Shown piece after piece: positions 1 through 11,745 of a stretch of DNA of 11,745 bases; position 1 is the first letter of the stretch; every line of letters begins with the position of its first letter. The DNA comes from a virus, in the UHGV virus genome UHGV-1592390; one strand, written 5' to 3'. The notes beneath the pieces were generated by a model. That model made no database searches. It was not told the origin of the DNA and saw only the letters and a program-made list of their open reading frames with translations. A program made the translations under genes and the position numbers.

Positions 1-74
1 TGATAGAAACAGAAGCCACTGGAGCACCTCAAAAACACCATCATACACTAAATCAGTAAGTTGGCAGCATCACC
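1..74 (-). mobile_element. IS1 terminal fragment (IRL / insA-upstream end); element body lies upstream of the window
   Basis: Bases 1..74 are the reverse complement of the canonical first ~74 bp of IS1 (GGTGATGCTGCCAACTTACTGAT... terminal inverted repeat), ending exactly at 74 (...gcagcatcacc). Recognised from memory of the IS1 sequence; insA/insB would be on the minus strand. Confidence 0.9.
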
Positions 75-83
75 GGAGAGTTC

Positions 84-332
84 TTAATCAGCATTCAGGA
101 GCAATGCGTTATCTATGATGATCTGCTCCCATTCCTCGAATGCCCGATCGCGGACGCCCTGGGGAACGCTGTTAGTTTTGAAATCGACGACCGTCCGCCA
201 TTTTCCGTCCGGACGGTACATGCGCAGAGCTTTACTTCCCCCTTCCCTGCGCACCTCAACGTTATGCTTGTCAGCAAACTCTTGTAATGCTCGTAGCGTC
301 CCATGCTTTACTGTGTAGTATCGCTTTTTCAA
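84..332 (-). CDS. lxc: Small 82-aa protein, likely P1 Lxc/Bof-like modulator of C1 repressor
   Basis: Complete 82-codon ORF. TTG start at 332-330 overlaps the stop of the upstream ORF (TTGA), with a GGAGAG Shine-Dalgarno 5 nt upstream. Size and position (third gene after darB) match my recollection of P1 lxc/bof; the protein sequence itself was not recognised. Stop lies 9 bp from the IS1 end. Confidence 0.55.
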   Translation of the reverse strand: MKKRYYTVKHGTLRALQEFADKHNVEVRREGGSKALRMYRPDGKWRTVVDFKTNSVPQGVRDRAFEEWEQIIIDNALLLNAD

Positions 333-769
333 GTTTTCTCTCCAGCCTGTGCTAAGGCTTCAACTTCCAAATCGTAAGACTCAAACTCATAGTCCTGGTC
401 GTCAACCTCTTCAGGCACTGGCAGTAAATGCCAGGCTGAGTATATCTGACCATTATCAAAACGCTCCTGGCTGTAGAGCGTCGCGGCTATGAGTGTCAGC
501 GCCGGGCGGTCATAACGGTAAATTTTGCGAACGTCACGGTCAACGAGACGACCGAAATTACCATAACCGCGCTCCAGTAATAATTTTTTAATTTCCGGCC
601 AGTATGGGCCATAGCTGCGGTACAGGCGGGGATTTTTCAGTAATCGCCCGCGTAGCCCTGACAGGAAGAAATCAACGTATTCGTCTTCTGTCTTTCCTAA
701 CAATGCCGTACGCAGTACCGCCTCAAGATATGTTTTATTCGGTTTTATTGTATCAGATAGTGTGGCCAT
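329..769 (-). CDS. ulx: 146-aa protein between darB and lxc, probably P1 Ulx-like (Dar system accessory)
   Basis: Complete ORF with ATG at 769-767 and TGA stop overlapping the lxc start. Co-directional and tightly packed with darB, 33 bp downstream of its stop. No recognisable catalytic motif; assignment is by position only. No obvious Shine-Dalgarno; a GC hairpin sits just upstream. Confidence 0.55.
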   Translation of the reverse strand: MATLSDTIKPNKTYLEAVLRTALLGKTEDEYVDFFLSGLRGRLLKNPRLYRSYGPYWPEIKKLLLERGYGNFGRLVDRDVRKIYRYDRPALTLIAATLYSQERFDNGQIYSAWHLLPVPEEVDDQDYEFESYDLEVEALAQAGEKT

Positions 770-778
770 ATTATGCGA

Positions 779-796
779 CGCCCGGCGAACCGGGCG
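779..796 (-). other. GC-rich stem-loop between the darB stop and the ulx start (7-bp stem, UUCG loop on the transcript)
   Basis: Minus-strand transcript reads CGCCCGG-UUCG-CCGGGCG, a perfect 7-bp stem with a UUCG tetraloop, 6 nt after the darB stop and ending 9 nt before the ulx ATG. No U-tract follows, so it is not a typical intrinsic terminator. Confidence 0.4.
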
Positions 797-802
797 CTCC
801 TG

Positions 803-3800
803 TTATGCGTATTGTTGGATGACGGCCAGAACGTCCGCCACGTTGTGTTTTGTCTCGATAATCCACCAGTTACCCGGGAAATCGCTGTTCTTCGCCTTCG
901 CTGGCAGCCAGCGAGCGCCGAATTTCGCCTTGATTGCGTCTTTCGCACGGAAAAGAACGCCTTTCATGCCTGAGGCTTCCTGAAGCCCAAATACCTCGCC
1001 AGCGGCGAATTTTGGTGCGTACATCATCTTCAGGTCGGCGGTGGATACGCGATAATTCAGACCAAGAGACTGAGCTATGCTGGTGGCATCACCCTGTATT
1101 GATGATAACTCTTCTTGTTTCTCGTTTCTGGCGGCAATTTCTTCCTCCGTGATGTTGCCAAGGGCCAGGTTTATCCGATCAGCGTCGGCCTGTTTCTCTT
1201 CATCGGTGCGTCCGGCAAGAACCGTGTTAACTCTCTGCAATATCTCCACATGATTCTTGCGCATGCTGAGCAATTCCGGCGTAACCTCGTTAAGATCCAC
1301 CAGCCCAAGGATGGCAAGGTCGGAAAACATTGATACCAGGTTGTAGGTCATGCGATAGCTGAGTTGACCATAGGCTGATGGCAACTTCACCGCATCCATT
1401 TGATAGGCATCCATAAATTTAGAGCCGTCGTTTACGACATCCGCAATTGCCGGTGTGATTTTTCCTGTGGTGGCGGCCTCCCTGATTGCTGTTACCCACG
1501 ATTGAGTCAGCGCGGCGACTGCATGATTCAGATTGGCTTTCCGTTCTGCTGCAATGCGCGCACTTGCTGCGTCCATTGCCTGCTTGATCTCGTCTTTATT
1601 GCTGTAAATGCCAATGGTGCCAAACTGTGCTGTGGTGATCTCATAATCTGACGCCCGGAACTCATTGGTACCGAAAATGGCATTGGTGACTTCAAGTTCA
1701 GAATCCCCGTTACGAGTAGACCCCTGGCTTGTTTTTTCCGGCATTCTGGCGATCGCATCCGCTATTTTCTCCTGAATTGCTTCAGGGGATAGCGTATCTC
1801 CGTATGACGCGATTACATCGCCATAATTGGAGCCAAACAATTCAACCAGGAATGTTTCTGCCGAACGGATCTGGCGGTTATTCCCTTCCGACATCATACC
1901 AAGCACCCATTTTGCAATTGACGACTTCAGCGCGCCGTCACGGCGATCCGGGTAAACCGCATGCTTCAGTGGGTCCGTATAGGTGCCAACAAAATCAATG
2001 CTATAGCCTGACTCTGTAGTCTGAACGCCGTATGAGTCAGTGATTTTGATCATGCCGCGCTGCTGGAAACGGTAGAAATCGTCACAGGAAATGATGTCGT
2101 TAATCCCGGCGATGGAGACGCCACCACTGATTTTCTGCATAACAGCATCTTCATCGGGAGTTACATCCACCTGTTTATCCAGCGTCTTCACATCCCAGTT
2201 ACCCGATTTGGTGCCTTTGAAGGTAAAGATGATCTCCACGTCTGCGCGCTGGCTGTCGAAGTCCAGCGACTTAATGCGAACGATATCACCGGCACAATCG
2301 TAGTATTGGCCTACACGCCATGAGCGATCGCCGATAACAAGGAACTCACTCGCATGGTTAACCAGGTCAGGATCAACATCCAGAATGCCTTTATTTATTG
2401 CATCCTCCACCAGCGGGCGCAGGCGTTTGATATCCGTCGCGGCCTTCTGAGTACGGTTCAATAATTTCTCATAGCGGGAGATGGCTTGAGTGATATTAGC
2501 CTTGCGCTGAATGGCGCTTTTCAACGACGCGCGATACTGTGCTAACAACATACGGTCTGTGTGATGGACACTCCCCCAGCGGGCCTTCCAGTCTGCGTTA
2601 TCCGCTGCCTTGGCCATTGCCGCCTGTTTGAATTTAGCTACCTCGGCGGTGGTCTTTTCAAGTTCCGCTTTGCTTCGCTCTAATTCAGCGGTAAGTACCT
2701 CCACATCCTCGCCAGCTGCGTGCTGCGCCTTGATGTAGTTCTGAAGGTCGATAGTAGCCTGTTCTTTCTGGCGAGCGCGTTGCGCGGCTTTCGCCTTATC
2801 CATTTGAACCTGCATCATTGCCAGACGTTCGCCATCATCCTTAGCGGTATACATCTGCATTTCGATCATATCGTTGGCGTCGGCGTTCTCCATTTCAGAC
2901 TTATCTGAGCGGAGGATATCGGAGATCCAGCCTGCTTTACGCTTCAGCGTCTTCAGTCGGTATTCATCGAAAGAACCCTTGCCGCAGTAGTAGTGAACGC
3001 GAACGCTTGCACGGTTGGAACCAACTCGGGCACCGCGACCGTTACGCTGTGCGATACTGGCTGGTGTCCATGGCAACGTCAGATGATGGATGTCAGTTGT
3101 TCCTCGATGCAGGTTGATACCCACCTCTGCCTTTTTGTTGCAGATGATGATCGGAGTCCGGCCCTCCTGGAAGTCGGCAGCAATCTTTTCCAGCCCACCC
3201 AGCGACATTTCATTTTGCTGCGCGATATAGGCGTCATACAGAGCCATTTGCTCGTTGTATTTCGCTATCTGTGCATCTGTTGGTTCATCCGGTAGCTCTT
3301 TCGGTGGTTTAACCGCTTTCAGTTTCTTACCGGTTTTACCTGCCTCGGCAACCGTCTGAGCATTCAGGATCCCCACCTTTGAAGGTTCAAGGTTAAGAGC
3401 ATTGCAGATAATGCGCTTGAGCTTCTGGTGTTGCGTTTTTTCATCGGTGAAGATGATTTGCTTACCTTCCGGGAAAAACTCCTTCAGCGTGGCAATCAGC
3501 TTCGCGTATTTGGGCGTAACGGGGTGAGTTACGGTCTGTTCGTCAATGCCAAACTTGGCCAGGCGCTTATTCACTTCCTGCTCAAATGCTTCCGGTACCT
3601 GCAACTGAATAAACTCGCCCTTATCTATCAGGGAGTATTGCGATTGCTGCGTGATCGAATCATCACTGTCGTCGTCTTCGCTGGTGGCTTGTTTAGGCAA
3701 ACTGTCCGCCAGCTGCTGCACCGCATCGGCGTACTCCGGCAGGAAACGATAGGTGATCCTGCGATAGTACAGGTCCATGTCAGTACATACGCGGTCCATA

Positions 3801-6800
3801 TCCCTGATTATTGAGAAGATCGGACGGGCTTTCTCGTGCTCAATCACGCCGTCTTCATTGACCGAGGTCGTTACGCCATTGTTGGCTTTGGCTGCCGCTT
3901 CCGCCTGCTGACGCAATTCTTCATACGCCGCCAGTTGTTCTTCCGTAAGTGGTGCATCCTGCTGGTGTTCGTCCAGTTCCGGGATCTCCACGGTATCCTT
4001 AACGTCTTCCGCCGTTTTAAGCGTTGTCCAGCGATGGAATATGCCGCGCAGCGCATCAAGGTTTTCAAAGCCCACCAGCGCCATTTTTTCTTCAACTTCA
4101 CCGCTGATTTTCTGTACCGTTTCCAGCCTGGTCTTGCCGAAGAATTTTACGAAGTCATCAGGACTGTAGATCCCCATCTTCTGCCAGTATTCCTTCGGCA
4201 GAACATGAGAAAGCATGTTGTATGCATCGATCGGGGTGTTAACGACTGGCGTTGCAGTCAGGAGAACCGGTCCGCGCCCACCATTCTTTTTCATCAGGTA
4301 CGCGTTTTTAATTGCCATATCCCGCGCCGATTGCGCCACCGCGCTGGTGGGCAGATAGGCCAGTTGTGACGCTTCGCGACCATTTTTATAGCTATTGCGG
4401 TAGTTGTGACCTTCGTCAGCGATCACACTATCGAAGCCCATATCCTCAAAGTACGGATACTTCTCTGCTTTTTCGGTGCCGGTATCTGAATACTCCGACA
4501 ATACCCGGCGACGCGCGGCCTCTTTGCGGTGGGAGTCGGAGTCCATTGCGCTGGCTACGCGCCCGGCGGCAACGAAGTCATAAAGCATATCCTGTGCATG
4601 CTCATCTACGGTGTCATCACGTAGCGGAATGCGGGCGTATTGTTCTTTGGTAAACACGACTGCACGGTAATTTGAGTGCGGGATCGCGTTCATCCGCGCC
4701 GTGATAGTGGCTTCATCTGCCAGCTTAAGAGCATCGCGCATAACTGGAGTGCCATCAGTACCAAGAACAGGTTTACCGTTCTCATCGAGCACCGGCACCT
4801 GGCGAATCTGATCGCCATCCATCAGCACATCAAGACCGACGAACAGGTAGTTACTGAATGCCTCTTCACTCAGGAATTCTTTTGCTTCGTAATACCAGTT
4901 TTCCAGCACTGATTTAGGCACTACATACGCAGTACGGGTGGAGCGACCGTTCTCATAGTTGAACGCCTCAAGCGCCAGCGCGGTCGTGGTTTTACCCAGC
5001 CCGGTGCCGAAGCCCAGGATGCCGCGCCCATCTTCGGACAGTCGGCGCACCTCGCTATTCTGGTAATCAAATGGCTGGCGCTTACCGCTTAATCCCTTCA
5101 ACCCAAGCGGATCGCCAGAGTGTTCATACGGGATATTGCTATTGAACACATCGTTGTATTTGGCAACCAGCTCATCGTAGCGATCGTGCGTCTTGATCCA
5201 CTTATTGAACTGGTCCTCAAGCAGTGCCATCTGCTCGCGGTAGCCGTTCGCCGTCGCGCTATCTTTGCCACCGATACGCGCACCATTGAGATACTTTTCC
5301 AGCTGTGCCGGGAACCCGGTCGCGTTTTCACCTGATTTACGGTCCCACTCGTAGCGGATCTCGCCTGTTTCTTTATCCTTGCGCTGGACGACACCGTATC
5401 GGTGCCCGACGAACAGACCATCACCACCGTGATAGGTGTCAGAAACCATTTCGTCGCCTTCCAGCTGCACTGACTGCACATAGCGAAGATCCGGATAGCC
5501 GTTTTCCTGCAAAAATTCCAGAATGACGGAACGGTCGAACCAACGGCTATTGAGCTTAAAGCGGATATTCTCTGCTGGCGTCTTGATGCGCTTCTCTTCG
5601 ATCGCTGCCAGCTGATTAAGGACGTTGTTCTTTACTGGACCGTCGGGGAGTGTGGCAAGGAATTCCTGTTTTGGTACCACTATCTCGTTAATGTCGCCGC
5701 TGGTGGCGCGGGCGAACGGAACAATCCCGCCATACGGTGAAACCGCAATGCCAGGGGTGCTGGCCAATAAATTAAGCAACTCGTCATCACTGGCTGGCAG
5801 TTCGCCGGTAAACGCAAGGCGGAAATCATCGAGCTGGATTGGATCGCGAGTGAGATCACTGTAGAGATAACGCAGGGTGTCCTGATAGCTGGTGGAGTCA
5901 TAACTGGCGCTGGAATCATGCGTAACCAGTTTTCCTGTCAGCTCGTCAGAAATAGTGCCATCCAGCTTAATTGCACCACGGAAAGCAAACCAGGCGCGCG
6001 CACCGCTCCCCGATAATTTCGCTATCGGACCGCGACCGGGGTTACCAAAACGGTCAATCTCTGCCTGCAAACGGGATACCAGAGAAAGGCGCTGCTGTTC
6101 GATTTGTTCAGCACTATGCCCGGCGGCCTTCATGTCCTGATATTCAATTAACATCCGGCCAATCATCGCCCCGCGATACAAGCGTTCACGGTATTTTTCA
6201 GGCTGGCTGTTAATCCAGTCCACCAGCTGCACCATATCGTCGCTGATTGATGTGGTGTACTTATCGCGGACATTTGCCATCTGGGTAAATGTCATACCGA
6301 GACGGCCTTCTGTTGTAGTCAGGTTACGCTGAAGAGCCTCCCAGCTGTCCGCGCCATAACTGGCAACATCAATCTTCAGCTCCTTCCCTGCATCAGCTTC
6401 AATCCAGCGACCACCAGCATATTTTTGCCATACGCCATTAATCAGGCGCATTTCCCCTTCATCAACAACGTCTGCGGTCGGTGACGGTTCAGCCATATTG
6501 AGCAAAGACCAGTCGATACGACTTTCGAAACGATGAATCAGCTTCGCTTTAAGAGCCTGGTTATCAATCTGCCCGTCGGCACGAACCTCAATACGCCCCT
6601 GGAATCCCTTCTCCTGAGTGCCATGAACAAACCGGCGGCCGTCCTTTTCAAACCACTTGCCAGAAATAAACGTTGGCCAAAGCACATTTGCCGATTCAAG
6701 AGTGCCTTCATCCACCAGGGGGATTTTCTCAGCCATCTCCGCCGGATGTTTGCGCATCAGCACCACGTCAACGACCGTACTGGTCCCGTTTGCGTCAAAA

Positions 6801-7570
6801 GTACCGGTAGGCAAGCGGTGGGCACCAAGAAATTCAGCTTTCCGTGATAGGCGCAGGCGTAACCGCTTCATGTTTGAACCTGAAACAATGGACGGCGGCA
6901 CAATCACGCACATGAATCCGCCTGGCTTTATCTTGTCCAGCATGCGGAGCATGAAGTAAGAACCCATGTCCGTTTCTTCTGCGTAAGGCTTATCGATGTT
7001 GCGTGTGTTATCACGACCACCGAACGGAACGTTACCCACAACATGGTCGAATGAATCGTTAGGCGTGCTTACAGCCAGCTGTTCGAACGGGGAAATCTGT
7101 ACGCTGTCTTCCGGGTGTAACAGCTGGTTTATACGACCGGAAACACTGCTGATCTCAGTCGCAGTCATCACCGTACCAACCGGTTTTGTCTCATTAAAAA
7201 CGCCGGTGCCCGCCGATGGTTCCAGAGTGTTACCTACGTCCGCGCCGTAGAGCTTCATGATCTCCCAGACACCTTCAGCGATCGGCTTTGGTGTGTAATA
7301 TTCGGAGACGGACCCGCCAATGCCGCCTTCACCGGTGTACCCAGCCAGGATCTGGCGCTGTTCATCTGTCAGTGTCGCGCCGTCCACCAGCGAATTAAGC
7401 AAATCTATCGCCTTCTGATTCGCCTCCCGGCGCAGTCGGTCATAGCTTTTGCCTTCCACCTTTTCCACGCCGTATTTAATCGGCGCTCGGTGAGATGTTA
7501 TTGCCCTAATGTATTTCAATATTTCGCTGACACTTGAACAGCGAAACACCCCCATAGATAGCTTGTTCAT
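803..7570 (-). CDS. darB: Giant (2255 aa) N6-adenine methyltransferase / SF2 helicase fusion; P1 DarB-like antirestriction protein
   Basis: Uninterrupted 6768-nt ORF with ATG at 7570 and an AAGGA Shine-Dalgarno 6 nt upstream. Gamma-class amino-methyltransferase motifs read from the translation: YYTP (aa 91-94), motif I LEPSAGTGVF (aa 116-125, nt ~7196-7225), motif IV NVPF (aa 180-183, nt 7022-7033). Helicase motifs: Walker A GFGTGLGKTT (aa 853-862, nt 4985-5014), DEGH (aa 1052-1055, nt 4406-4417), motif III LLTATP (aa 1103-1108), motif VI QRNGRGAR (aa 1508-1515, nt 3026-3049). Length and architecture match my recollection of P1 DarB. The C-terminal ~700 aa has a coiled-coil-like stretch and no recognisable motif. 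Confidence 0.85.
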   Translation of the reverse strand: MNKLSMGVFRCSSVSEILKYIRAITSHRAPIKYGVEKVEGKSYDRLRREANQKAIDLLNSLVDGATLTDEQRQILAGYTGEGGIGGSVSEYYTPKPIAEGVWEIMKLYGADVGNTLEPSAGTGVFNETKPVGTVMTATEISSVSGRINQLLHPEDSVQISPFEQLAVSTPNDSFDHVVGNVPFGGRDNTRNIDKPYAEETDMGSYFMLRMLDKIKPGGFMCVIVPPSIVSGSNMKRLRLRLSRKAEFLGAHRLPTGTFDANGTSTVVDVVLMRKHPAEMAEKIPLVDEGTLESANVLWPTFISGKWFEKDGRRFVHGTQEKGFQGRIEVRADGQIDNQALKAKLIHRFESRIDWSLLNMAEPSPTADVVDEGEMRLINGVWQKYAGGRWIEADAGKELKIDVASYGADSWEALQRNLTTTEGRLGMTFTQMANVRDKYTTSISDDMVQLVDWINSQPEKYRERLYRGAMIGRMLIEYQDMKAAGHSAEQIEQQRLSLVSRLQAEIDRFGNPGRGPIAKLSGSGARAWFAFRGAIKLDGTISDELTGKLVTHDSSASYDSTSYQDTLRYLYSDLTRDPIQLDDFRLAFTGELPASDDELLNLLASTPGIAVSPYGGIVPFARATSGDINEIVVPKQEFLATLPDGPVKNNVLNQLAAIEEKRIKTPAENIRFKLNSRWFDRSVILEFLQENGYPDLRYVQSVQLEGDEMVSDTYHGGDGLFVGHRYGVVQRKDKETGEIRYEWDRKSGENATGFPAQLEKYLNGARIGGKDSATANGYREQMALLEDQFNKWIKTHDRYDELVAKYNDVFNSNIPYEHSGDPLGLKGLSGKRQPFDYQNSEVRRLSEDGRGILGFGTGLGKTTTALALEAFNYENGRSTRTAYVVPKSVLENWYYEAKEFLSEEAFSNYLFVGLDVLMDGDQIRQVPVLDENGKPVLGTDGTPVMRDALKLADEATITARMNAIPHSNYRAVVFTKEQYARIPLRDDTVDEHAQDMLYDFVAAGRVASAMDSDSHRKEAARRRVLSEYSDTGTEKAEKYPYFEDMGFDSVIADEGHNYRNSYKNGREASQLAYLPTSAVAQSARDMAIKNAYLMKKNGGRGPVLLTATPVVNTPIDAYNMLSHVLPKEYWQKMGIYSPDDFVKFFGKTRLETVQKISGEVEEKMALVGFENLDALRGIFHRWTTLKTAEDVKDTVEIPELDEHQQDAPLTEEQLAAYEELRQQAEAAAKANNGVTTSVNEDGVIEHEKARPIFSIIRDMDRVCTDMDLYYRRITYRFLPEYADAVQQLADSLPKQATSEDDDSDDSITQQSQYSLIDKGEFIQLQVPEAFEQEVNKRLAKFGIDEQTVTHPVTPKYAKLIATLKEFFPEGKQIIFTDEKTQHQKLKRIICNALNLEPSKVGILNAQTVAEAGKTGKKLKAVKPPKELPDEPTDAQIAKYNEQMALYDAYIAQQNEMSLGGLEKIAADFQEGRTPIIICNKKAEVGINLHRGTTDIHHLTLPWTPASIAQRNGRGARVGSNRASVRVHYYCGKGSFDEYRLKTLKRKAGWISDILRSDKSEMENADANDMIEMQMYTAKDDGERLAMMQVQMDKAKAAQRARQKEQATIDLQNYIKAQHAAGEDVEVLTAELERSKAELEKTTAEVAKFKQAAMAKAADNADWKARWGSVHHTDRMLLAQYRASLKSAIQRKANITQAISRYEKLLNRTQKAATDIKRLRPLVEDAINKGILDVDPDLVNHASEFLVIGDRSWRVGQYYDCAGDIVRIKSLDFDSQRADVEIIFTFKGTKSGNWDVKTLDKQVDVTPDEDAVMQKISGGVSIAGINDIISCDDFYRFQQRGMIKITDSYGVQTTESGYSIDFVGTYTDPLKHAVYPDRRDGALKSSIAKWVLGMMSEGNNRQIRSAETFLVELFGSNYGDVIASYGDTLSPEAIQEKIADAIARMPEKTSQGSTRNGDSELEVTNAIFGTNEFRASDYEITTAQFGTIGIYSNKDEIKQAMDAASARIAAERKANLNHAVAALTQSWVTAIREAATTGKITPAIADVVNDGSKFMDAYQMDAVKLPSAYGQLSYRMTYNLVSMFSDLAILGLVDLNEVTPELLSMRKNHVEILQRVNTVLAGRTDEEKQADADRINLALGNITEEEIAARNEKQEELSSIQGDATSIAQSLGLNYRVSTADLKMMYAPKFAAGEVFGLQEASGMKGVLFRAKDAIKAKFGARWLPAKAKNSDFPGNWWIIETKHNVADVLAVIQQYA

Positions 7571-10367
<2,797 letters not shown>

Positions 10368-10371
10368 CCAC

Positions 10372-10405
10372 CAAAAATAACCCCGGCGGCTGCCGGGGTT
10401 CTCGT
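10372..10405. terminator. Bidirectional intrinsic terminator between convergent pro (+) and lyz/orf84 (-) transcripts
   Basis: Perfect 7-bp GC stem CCCCGGC (10381-10387), loop GGCT, GCCGGGG (10392-10398). On the minus strand it is followed by TTATTTTTGG (strong U-tract); on the plus strand it is preceded by an A-tract and followed by the weaker TTCTCGTT. Lies 14 nt after the pro stop and 14 nt after the orf84 stop. Confidence 0.7.
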
Positions 10406-10411
10406 TAACTA

Positions 10412-10666
10412 TTATCGCCTTCGCCTGCGTGCCATATATTTGCGCACCGCGCGGCGTGGACAATCTGAAGCGGTTTCTTTCTGCTGCATCAATCTTGCAG
10501 CCATGCTCAAAAATGTCAGGCACAGCCGAAGCCCGGCATACAATAGCGGTTCCAGTGGCCACGTCTCATTGAGCACATATACCGCCATGAAAATCGAGTC
10601 AAAAACTATCGCCGCCAGCGATAACTTCATTGTCGAAAGTCGGCGGAGCTGCCGGAGTTTATTCAT
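10412..10666 (-). CDS. Hypothetical 84-aa small membrane protein, translationally coupled to lyz; holin-like features
   Basis: ATG at 10666-10664 overlaps the lyz stop (ATGAATAA arrangement). One clear hydrophobic segment (LSLAAIVFDSIFMAVYVL), a second weaker one, and a strongly basic C-terminus (RRAVRKYMARRRRR). Ends 14 nt before the terminator hairpin. Codon usage looks ordinary. No homology could be checked. Confidence 0.4.
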   Translation of the reverse strand: MNKLRQLRRLSTMKLSLAAIVFDSIFMAVYVLNETWPLEPLLYAGLRLCLTFLSMAARLMQQKETASDCPRRAVRKYMARRRRR

Positions 10667-11216
10667 TGACCAGTCCCGTCAGGCAAAGCTGGCGTTCTTT
10701 TTCACGGCGAATCTTTAAACCTCGCAGGGGCACGCCGTTACTGTTCACGAAATCAGGGAGATGGTTACACATATTCACCCATTCCCCTTTCTGCGCCCAC
10801 TTGTGGATGGACGTTTCTACTCGCATGCCTCGCGCTTTGCTGTAGTAGGTCCGTAAGCTATTGCATCCCATATTGAATGCCGCGCTTGTCATTGCACTGA
10901 AGGCATTATCGGGCATGTCTTTGCCCCGGAAGTGCTGATTAATACAGCGTTCAGCGATCAGGATATTCTTTTCCCAATCAGCGGCGATTTGCTGGTCTGT
11001 TTTTCGCACACCCGGCGTTACCCCGTGTGTATTACCGATCCCGTCAGTCCATACCCCTGCCGGGCACATGTATGGATCACGTCGGCAACCTTCAGCGTTA
11101 CCAATCAGCTCAAGCCCCGCCTGGTTGGTTCGCACATTGCCATTACCCATCACGATGGTAATCATCACCGCGATAGCGCAAATTGCACCGCCTCCTGCGG
11201 CTGTTTTTCCCTTCAT
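10659..11216 (-). CDS. lyz: SAR (signal-arrest-release) endolysin, P1 Lyz, 185 aa
   Basis: From ATG 11216-11214 (GAGGT Shine-Dalgarno 5 nt upstream) the translation begins MKGKTAAGGGAICAIAVMITIVMGNGNVRTN..., with the N-terminal SAR transmembrane segment containing Cys13, then E42 and the Cys44/Cys51 pair (NAEGCRRDPYMC) characteristic of P1 Lyz as I recall it. The ORF track's longer 218-aa version adds an in-frame 33-aa extension with no ribosome-binding site. Confidence 0.93.
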   Translation of the reverse strand: MKGKTAAGGGAICAIAVMITIVMGNGNVRTNQAGLELIGNAEGCRRDPYMCPAGVWTDGIGNTHGVTPGVRKTDQQIAADWEKNILIAERCINQHFRGKDMPDNAFSAMTSAAFNMGCNSLRTYYSKARGMRVETSIHKWAQKGEWVNMCNHLPDFVNSNGVPLRGLKIRREKERQLCLTGLVNE

Positions 11217-11299
11217 AAAGACCTCATAAGCGAATTTTTTACGCTCCAGGACAAACACCCATTCACAGCCAATACCGACTGACTCGATCCCTTTAGAAG

Positions 11300-11326
11300 A
11301 CACAGGATAATGCAAATCACTTGTTA
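11300..11326 (-). promoter_or_regulatory. Candidate late promoter for lyz (shared box plus -10-like hexamer)
   Basis: On the lyz-sense strand: TAACAAGTGA (complement of 11317-11326), 4 nt, then CATTAT (complement of 11307-11312). Same decamer and geometry as upstream of prt. Predicted start near 11300, about 84 nt upstream of the lyz ATG. Confidence 0.35.
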
Positions 11327-11366
11327 GCTACGTTTCAAAGATATACATTATTGCTCTAATTATTTT
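11321..11366 (+). promoter_or_regulatory. Candidate sigma70 promoter for ssb overlapped by a C1-repressor operator-like site
   Basis: -35 TTGTTA (11321-11326), 17-bp spacer, -10 TACATT (11344-11349). Immediately downstream, ATTGCTCTAATTATTTT (11350-11366) matches the P1 C1 operator consensus ATTGCTCTAATAAATTT as I recall it at 15 of 17 positions. ssb GTG start follows at 11386. Confidence 0.5.
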
Positions 11367-11385
11367 ATTTTATTAGGTAAGAAAA

Positions 11386-11670
11386 GTGGCACAACGCGGT
11401 GTAAACAAAGTCATCCTGATTGGTACCCTGGGGCAAGACCCGGAGATCAGGTATATACCAAATGGCGGAGCAGTCGGAAGACTCAGCATCGCAACGAATG
11501 AATCATGGCGCGACAAGCAAACGGGCCAACAGAAAGAGCAAACAGAATGGCATAAAGTCGTTTTGTTCGGAAAACTTGCTGAAATTGCGAGTGAGTATTT
11601 ACGAAAAGGTTCTCAGGTCTACATCGAAGGGAAACTTAAAACCCGTAAGTGGACAGATGACGCCGGTGTA
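11386..11670 (+). pseudogene. ssb: Single-stranded DNA-binding protein gene, 5' portion only (codons 1-95), disrupted by IS1
   Basis: GTG start at 11386 with an AGGTAAG Shine-Dalgarno-like sequence upstream. Translation [95 protein letters not shown] aligns with the N-terminal OB-fold of E. coli SSB ([31 protein letters not shown]...KWTDQSG). After codon 95 the frame runs into IS1 sequence and is open to the window edge; the rest of the OB-fold, the Gly-rich linker and the acidic C-terminal tail are missing. Not in the ORF track because no stop occurs in-window. Confidence 0.85.
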
Positions 11671-11745
11671 GGTAATGACTCCAACTTATTGATAGTGTTT
11701 TATGTTCAGATAATGCCCGATGACTTTGTCATGCAGCTCCACCGA
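11671..11745 (-). mobile_element. IS1 terminal fragment (IRR / insB-distal end); element body continues downstream of the window
   Basis: GGTAATGACTCCAACTTATTGATAGTG... from 11671 is the IS1 right inverted repeat and adjacent sequence, read as the reverse complement of the canonical orientation. Same orientation as the IS1 end at 1..74. Confidence 0.9.

Follow-up and report, generated by a model that had tools for sequence, protein, structure and literature searches.

The left-hand end of the DNA analysed here is probably, and we say so with good confidence, a genuine IS1 transposition junction in the spacer between a SIR2-family gene and lxc, on a P1-like (IncY, Punavirus-type) phage-plasmid with the gene arrangement mat-SIR2-lxc and with no loss of res/mod at the RD-1 site. 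The window, by which we mean the whole stretch of 11,745 nucleotides, is an entire short-read metagenome contig (ENA ERZ507907 NODE_1310, coverage ~4.9x), and both of its ends lie inside IS1. Mechanistically, the InsAB' transposase would have linked IS1, by its IRL end, to the 41 bp that separate lxc from the convergent SIR2-family gene. The element leaves lxc, its three promoters, ulx and darB intact (Table 1): the Lxc protein (82 codons) equals P1 Lxc at 82/82 amino acids, and all three promoters (window positions 377-405, 555-583 and 700-726) are base-for-base those of P1. Since the repeated IS1 broke the contig at both ends, the far side of the element is unassembled, and the contig is evidence neither for nor against a deletion.

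Table 1. Positions of features in the window, and of the SIR2_2-domain gene in two comparison loci.
Feature	Position	Strand	Remarks
IS1 left (IRL) end	1..74	minus	74/74 bases as in P1-borne IS1; element cut by contig end
insA GTG start codon	19..17	minus	within IS1 left end
IS1 promoter-like site CTGCCA-16-TATGAT	67..40	minus	pattern scan
Spacer GGAGAGTTC, 9 bp	75..83	none	between IS1 terminus and lxc stop
lxc (C1 co-repressor, formerly bof)	84..332	minus	intact; named lxc in the annotation of P1, P7 and RCS47
ulx	329..769	minus	holds the three sigma-70 lxc promoters annotated in P1
darB (2255 aa, anti-restriction methylase/helicase)	803..7570	minus	open reading frame; darB in P1 annotation
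ssb, truncated after codon 95	11386..11670	plus	compared with P1 Ssb; target uninterrupted in pMB9698_1
IS1 right (IRR) end, GGTAATGACTCCAACTTATTGAT	11671..11745	minus	orientation as left IS1; element cut by contig end
SIR2_2-domain gene	locus L003 2666-3970; locus L012 3164-4468		between mat and lxc

The IS1 termini and the lxc flank

Both sequence and layout identify the left-hand element as IS1. The 23-nt IRL GGTGATGCTGCCAACTTACTGAT has a single match in the window, at 74..52 and with 0 mismatches, where shuffled sequence gave an expectation of 0.00; insA begins ~55 nt inside IRL and reads inward, as in IS1, and translation of minus-strand positions 19..2 yields VASVSI, which are residues 1-6 of P1 InsA. 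The stop codon of lxc is the TAA at 86..84 on the minus strand, and the preliminary description of this DNA was right in placing the IS1 terminus 9 bp past it. This distance equals the length of an IS1 target duplication, given as 8 or 9 bp in a passage of PMC12428005 that cites Grindley 1978. Moreover, the spacer GGAGAGTTC is matched at 9/9 positions in NZ_CP023961.1 and other plasmids of SIR2 type, in which it is preceded by ...CTCCGGCCTAATCTCCCTAGGCC; it is the IS1 target sequence and, if the insertion was a simple one, represents one of the two 9-bp repeats to be expected.

The element at the right-hand end has the same orientation, and its IRR end matches the IS1 of P1 at 74/75 bases, with the sole difference at the base annotated in P1 as mutant. 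Window position 11682 has the canonical C, at which the IS1 of P1 is substituted (“mutant terminal IR, possibly defective in transposition” in its annotation), and because of this base the window IS1 is not simply the resident copy of P1. Of each IS1 copy one flank is in the contig, and these inner flanks, GGAGAGTTC and GCCGGTGTA, are not the same, which is what two separate sites should give. P1 (AF234172 / NC_005856) shares with the window the gene order lxc-ulx-darB-prt-pro-lyz-ssb and a same-orientation IS1 on the ssb side; unlike in the window, however, its ssb is intact, with the IS1 placed 1.1 kb further on, past isaA and away from lxc, and mod-res follows lxc. The possibility that the window IS1 is P1's own resident element was rejected on the positions: in P1 the element comes after ssb-isaA (22626-23393), and mod stands directly after lxc.

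Because each breakpoint falls at the exact base of an IS1 terminus, we take the junction to be the product of a real transposition and not of chance or chimera formation. A low-coverage metaSPAdes contig might have been wrongly extended from P1-like DNA into IS1 reads from the rest of the community, and three observations fit such an artefact: the coverage was ~4.9x, IS1 is highly repeated (matches in 4980/5426 E. coli genomes), and the 40-nt junction gave 0 exact matches in phages, PLSDB, 5426 complete E. coli genomes, GTDB species representatives, IMG/VR and JGI metagenomes. However, breakpoints that fall to the base at IS1 termini are not expected of a random chimera, and the right-hand junction is found independently in two finished plasmids; we therefore consider the artefact extremely unlikely. 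The collections searched contain no earlier record of this insertion site; in other respects the junction is of an ordinary kind for IS1, at a hot spot (RD-1) that was already known. It resembles IS1 insertions and IS1-mediated adjacent deletions in enterobacterial plasmids: the IRL and IRR termini are correct to the base, the start of insA and the promoter inside IRL are in place, and the spacer is 9 bp long. It differs from them in that the window contains only 74-75 bases of each IS1 end, so that most of the 768-bp element, with the -1 frameshift site of insA/insB', lies outside the contig.

Reading outward on the plus strand, a TTGGCA within IRL (61-66) is followed after a 16-nt spacer by CTTAAT (83-88), so placed that the whole extends over the spacer and the lxc stop. 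As a hybrid promoter (61-88) directed antisense into lxc, this was set aside as a weak candidate, its -10 hexamer being without an A at position 2 and the scan having made no call.

The DNA that follows lxc

The res-mod locus (RD-1) and the IS1 region (RD-2) of P1 are hot spots that flank a conserved block (Venturini et al. 2019, PMC6906374). The window spans this block, and its left-hand junction is at the edge of RD-1 nearest to lxc, a site of variable cargo; unlike in complete plasmids with an RD-1 region, the IS1 end is 9 bp from lxc and the cargo is outside the contig. The cargo seen at RD-1 ranges over type III restriction-modification, a SIR2-like gene, nothing at all, HTH/AraC genes and IS1-bounded cassettes. 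In P1 and P7, mod-res is directly downstream of lxc, and the P2mod promoter of P1 overlaps the lxc stop. In RCS47 and pO111_2, mat adjoins lxc directly. The plasmids closest to the window have a SIR2-family gene of 434 aa between mat and lxc, convergent with lxc, the product of which matches Pfam SIR2_2 (1.6e-23) and the PADLOC models for PDC-S25, ThsA and LmuA-like proteins.

The preliminary description had given mod/res as the neighbour of lxc in P1 and had proposed that it was displaced or deleted by IS1, with loss of the phage's restriction-modification module and with transcripts of the darB operon running antisense to insA/insB. This neighbour is correct for P1, and for P7 as well, and some observations are in keeping with such an ancestor: mod-res stands directly after lxc in both phages, 65 PLSDB plasmids have a mod-type junction, and the DNA beyond IS1 is outside the contig. 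As the ancestral neighbour in this lineage, however, mod/res does not agree with the flank. In an alignment of the known variants, the mat-SIR2-lxc type agrees with the window at every base of the 9-bp flank and of the final 27 nt of lxc, whereas P1/P7 differ from the window at 4 positions in the lxc 3' end and 7/9 bases of the flank GGAGAGTTC. The four lxc 3'-end substitutions of the window are those of the SIR2/RCS47 type, and the stretch corresponding to P2mod differs from P1; neither mod-type sequence after the lxc stop nor a P1-type lxc 3' end was found in the window.

The backbone points in the same direction. Synteny over lxc-ulx-darB-prt-pro-lyz-ssb in a single collinear match places the window on a P1-like (Punavirus) backbone, of which the IncY-type replicon and the structural and lytic genes of the phage fall outside the 11.7-kb contig. 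Positions 73-600 are 100% identical in four PLSDB plasmids, and all checked plasmids with a match starting at position 73 are of the mat-SIR2-lxc arrangement; the CC extending the match also equals the last bases of IS1, which leaves the SIR2 assignment to the 9 bp and the backbone identity, not to cargo. The nearest plasmid, pMB9698_1 (NZ_CP103469.1), covers 75-11670 in one collinear match of 99.8%, is of SIR2 type, and has IS1 at neither the lxc nor the ssb site. The nearest backbones as a group (99.5-99.8%) are SIR2-type, against 98.5-99% for P1. Relatives that natively lack mod/res at lxc do exist, in both the SIR2-type and the RCS47-type arrangement. With the flank, the lxc 3' end and the nearest backbones all of SIR2 type, and with the antisense orientation wrong whatever the ancestry (insA being on the lxc strand), the proposed descent from a P1-type ancestor is most improbable. 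What this lineage most likely had at the site is a SIR2-type gene for defence and not res/mod, and the comparison does not support the loss of a res/mod module from it there.

P1 itself is not a typical member in this respect. PLSDB holds ~670 plasmids with the lxc-ulx stretch, among which SIR2-type and mod-type junctions are equally common (65/~670 each, ~10%). The slot occupied by EcoP1I res-mod in P1 serves as an interchangeable slot for defence genes.

A look-up of the exact DarB protein returned only the window contig and ERZ27258573 k141_17367. In the latter (11350-11546) DarB is identical over 2255/2255 residues, the lxc 3' end differs (a TGA stop and several substitutions), and other DNA follows, without IS1. 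Because an identical DarB is here paired with a different lxc 3' end, a recombination boundary of RD-1 can be placed inside the last codons of lxc.

We also considered the structure of the spacer. In IS1-free relatives of SIR2 type its 41 bp read TAG-tatatttat-CTCCGGCC-taatctcccta-GGCCGGAG-agttc-TTA and contain a hairpin that, as RNA, has a 12-bp stem 5 nt after the lxc stop; the 81-nt hairpin segment of these relatives folds at -25.1 kcal/mol (z -3.8). The IS1 junction falls between GGCC and GGAG, in the lxc-proximal arm, and the hairpin is therefore either 768 bp off, beyond IS1, or gone. The nine bases GGAGAGTTC are its remnant, comprising the final 4 nt of the stem and the T-rich tail. In the relatives the hairpin fits the pattern of a terminator on the plus strand only, that of the SIR2 gene, with a T-rich tail GTTCTTAATC overlapping both the nine-base stretch and the stop codon of lxc; in the direction of lxc transcription, the hairpin is followed by AUAAAUAU. 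Judged from these sequences, the split element is probably in the main the terminator of the convergent SIR2 gene, and in addition a 3' stem-loop of the lxc mRNA.

Within the window, a pattern scan found no terminator-like site on either strand of positions 1-1000, and the minus-strand transcript 110..1 folded no better than shuffled sequence (z = +1.09). Scan and folding thus bear out the earlier statement that no hairpin intervenes between the lxc stop and IS1. The related statement, that the darB-ulx-lxc unit retains no terminator, stands as a description, the split hairpin being terminator-like for the convergent SIR2 gene and not for lxc. P1 has no terminator, annotated or predicted, between lxc and mod.

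Stem-loops near the end of lxc are found in several of the loci compared, ~5-35 nt from the stop (L002 3470-3500, L003 3979-4007, L004 6075-6112 and L007 11404-11470). Variants without restriction-modification genes (RCS47, H15 plasmid A and ERZ27258573 k141_17367) have an unrelated hairpin of their own just after lxc, and P1 and P7 have no stem-loop before mod. From the comparison of variants, a 3' structure would seem to be selected for wherever lxc ends its unit.

Insertion, rearrangement and the ssb junction

A simple insertion would have duplicated GGAGAGTTC and left an intact hairpin, SIR2 and mat beyond IS1, with a reciprocal junction in which ...CCCTAGGCCGGAGAGTTC meets GGTAATGACTCCAACTTATTG...; we regard this as a possible outcome with a chance of roughly one in three. 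The other outcome, to which we lean at slightly better than even, is that IS1 marks the boundary of a rearrangement or deletion and that SIR2 is no longer adjacent. The leaning is due to a comparison with six complete plasmids in which an IS1 occupies the lxc slot and turns its IRL towards lxc. For five of them, a small, BLAST-selected sample, both ends of the element could be placed, and in 5/5 the 9-bp flanks of the element differ, which means that there is no target duplication. Beyond IS1 these five have a truncated mat, IncX-type DNA, the dgo operon, IS3 or an encapsulin/Dyp-peroxidase cassette, all of them non-syntenic. At RD-1, then, IS1 typically is a rearrangement boundary. In complete plasmids with IS1 by lxc, the span from the IS1 end to the lxc match exceeds the query by 29-456 bp, and the 9 bp of the window are the closest approach found. 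If IS1 marks a rearrangement or deletion here too, the lost or moved cargo would be the SIR2-type gene.

The right-hand junction, ...GACGCCGGTGTA followed by GGTAATGAC, occurs to the nucleotide in 2/5426 complete E. coli genomes (NZ_CP061756.1 and NZ_CP034659.1). In both plasmids the IS1 in ssb forms the left-hand arm of a structure IS1-mrkABCDF-IS1, with genes for type 3 fimbriae, and is oriented as in the window; at the far end of this structure no target duplication was found in either. The two plasmids are like the window in the identical ssb::IS1 junction and orientation, and unlike it in that an HTH gene occupies RD-1 and lxc has no IS1 beside it. Over the 1500 bp before the junction they differ from the window at 41 positions, compared with 5 for the IS1-free pMB9698_1, and the sequence comparison points to either recombination near the junction or a hot spot for IS1. 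The reading frame of the truncated ssb has no stop through the 75 bases of IS1 (11671-11745), and an Ssb'-IS1 fusion peptide is predicted.

The geometry of the two ends invites a further reading, in which both belong to one IS1 copy. The contig would then derive from a 12.4-kb circle (IS1 plus lxc-ssb'), excised by intramolecular transposition of IS1 or by recombination between two direct copies, or else from a Tn9-like unit in another replicon. IRL faces lxc and IRR faces ssb' in the same orientation, which is exactly the geometry of a deletion circle formed when an IS1 resident at ssb attacks the SIR2-lxc spacer, and two complete plasmids do have IS1 at the identical ssb position. However, the genes of the window include neither a plasmid nor a lytic replicon, and a free circle of such a block should not persist to ~5x coverage; moreover, two direct IS1 copies in one plasmid yield the same contig. 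A single copy joining both ends is accordingly unlikely in our estimation.

Tn9 consists of cat between directly repeated IS1 copies and was first seen on P1Cm. Like Tn9, the window has two direct IS1 ends that bracket a segment of DNA; unlike in Tn9, this segment is 11.6 kb of phage backbone with no resistance gene, and the contig shows no sign of movement as a unit. That the IS1-bracketed block (lxc, ulx, darB, head-processing, lysis, ssb') is itself a Tn9-like translocatable unit seems to us very unlikely. If it were one, it would carry the immunity and anti-restriction functions of P1 between replicons, and its movement, or else a strong IS1 hot spot, would have left a trace in the ssb::IS1 junction that falls at one and the same nucleotide on backbones 2.7% apart.

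Transcription from lxc into IS1

With the insA start on the same strand as lxc (VASVSI at minus-strand 19..2), the earlier statement that read-through would be antisense to insA/insB has to be reversed: by sequence, insA is co-directional with lxc, ulx and darB, and any read-through into IS1 would be in the sense direction. The lxc promoters are without C1 control, and lxc expression is constitutive (PMC8546580). For chromosomal copies of IS1, both insAB' transcription and transposition go up with co-directional transcription from upstream and go down when an rrnB terminator is placed ahead of the element (PMC12428005). We infer that constitutive lxc transcripts, meeting no hairpin, would run in sense into IS1 and add to the transcription of insA/insAB', and that, through this read-through, the present copy of IS1 may be a relatively active one. 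Without its 3' hairpin, the lxc mRNA may be less stable.

Some counterpoints should be kept in mind. InsA bound at IRL may block or damp the incoming polymerase. IS1 insertions are classically polar, and such polarity could damp read-through; older work is also said to have found transposition reduced by transcription across the ends of the element. A scan of the sense strand of IS1 for an intrinsic terminator found none.

In conclusion, the importance of this junction taken singly is low, as it adds one more IS1 junction to an already described hot spot of P1-like elements. Two cautions are of practical use. A contig that ends in an insertion sequence at both ends is no basis for claims of gene loss, and arguments from sense or antisense transcription require that the orientation of the element first be taken from the insA start. 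P1 is a misleading reference for the DNA after lxc, as only about one in ten lxc-bearing plasmids has mod there. If the sense read-through is real, the IS1 copy next to lxc would be a relatively active donor, which would fit the finding of many rearrangements bounded by IS1 at the site.
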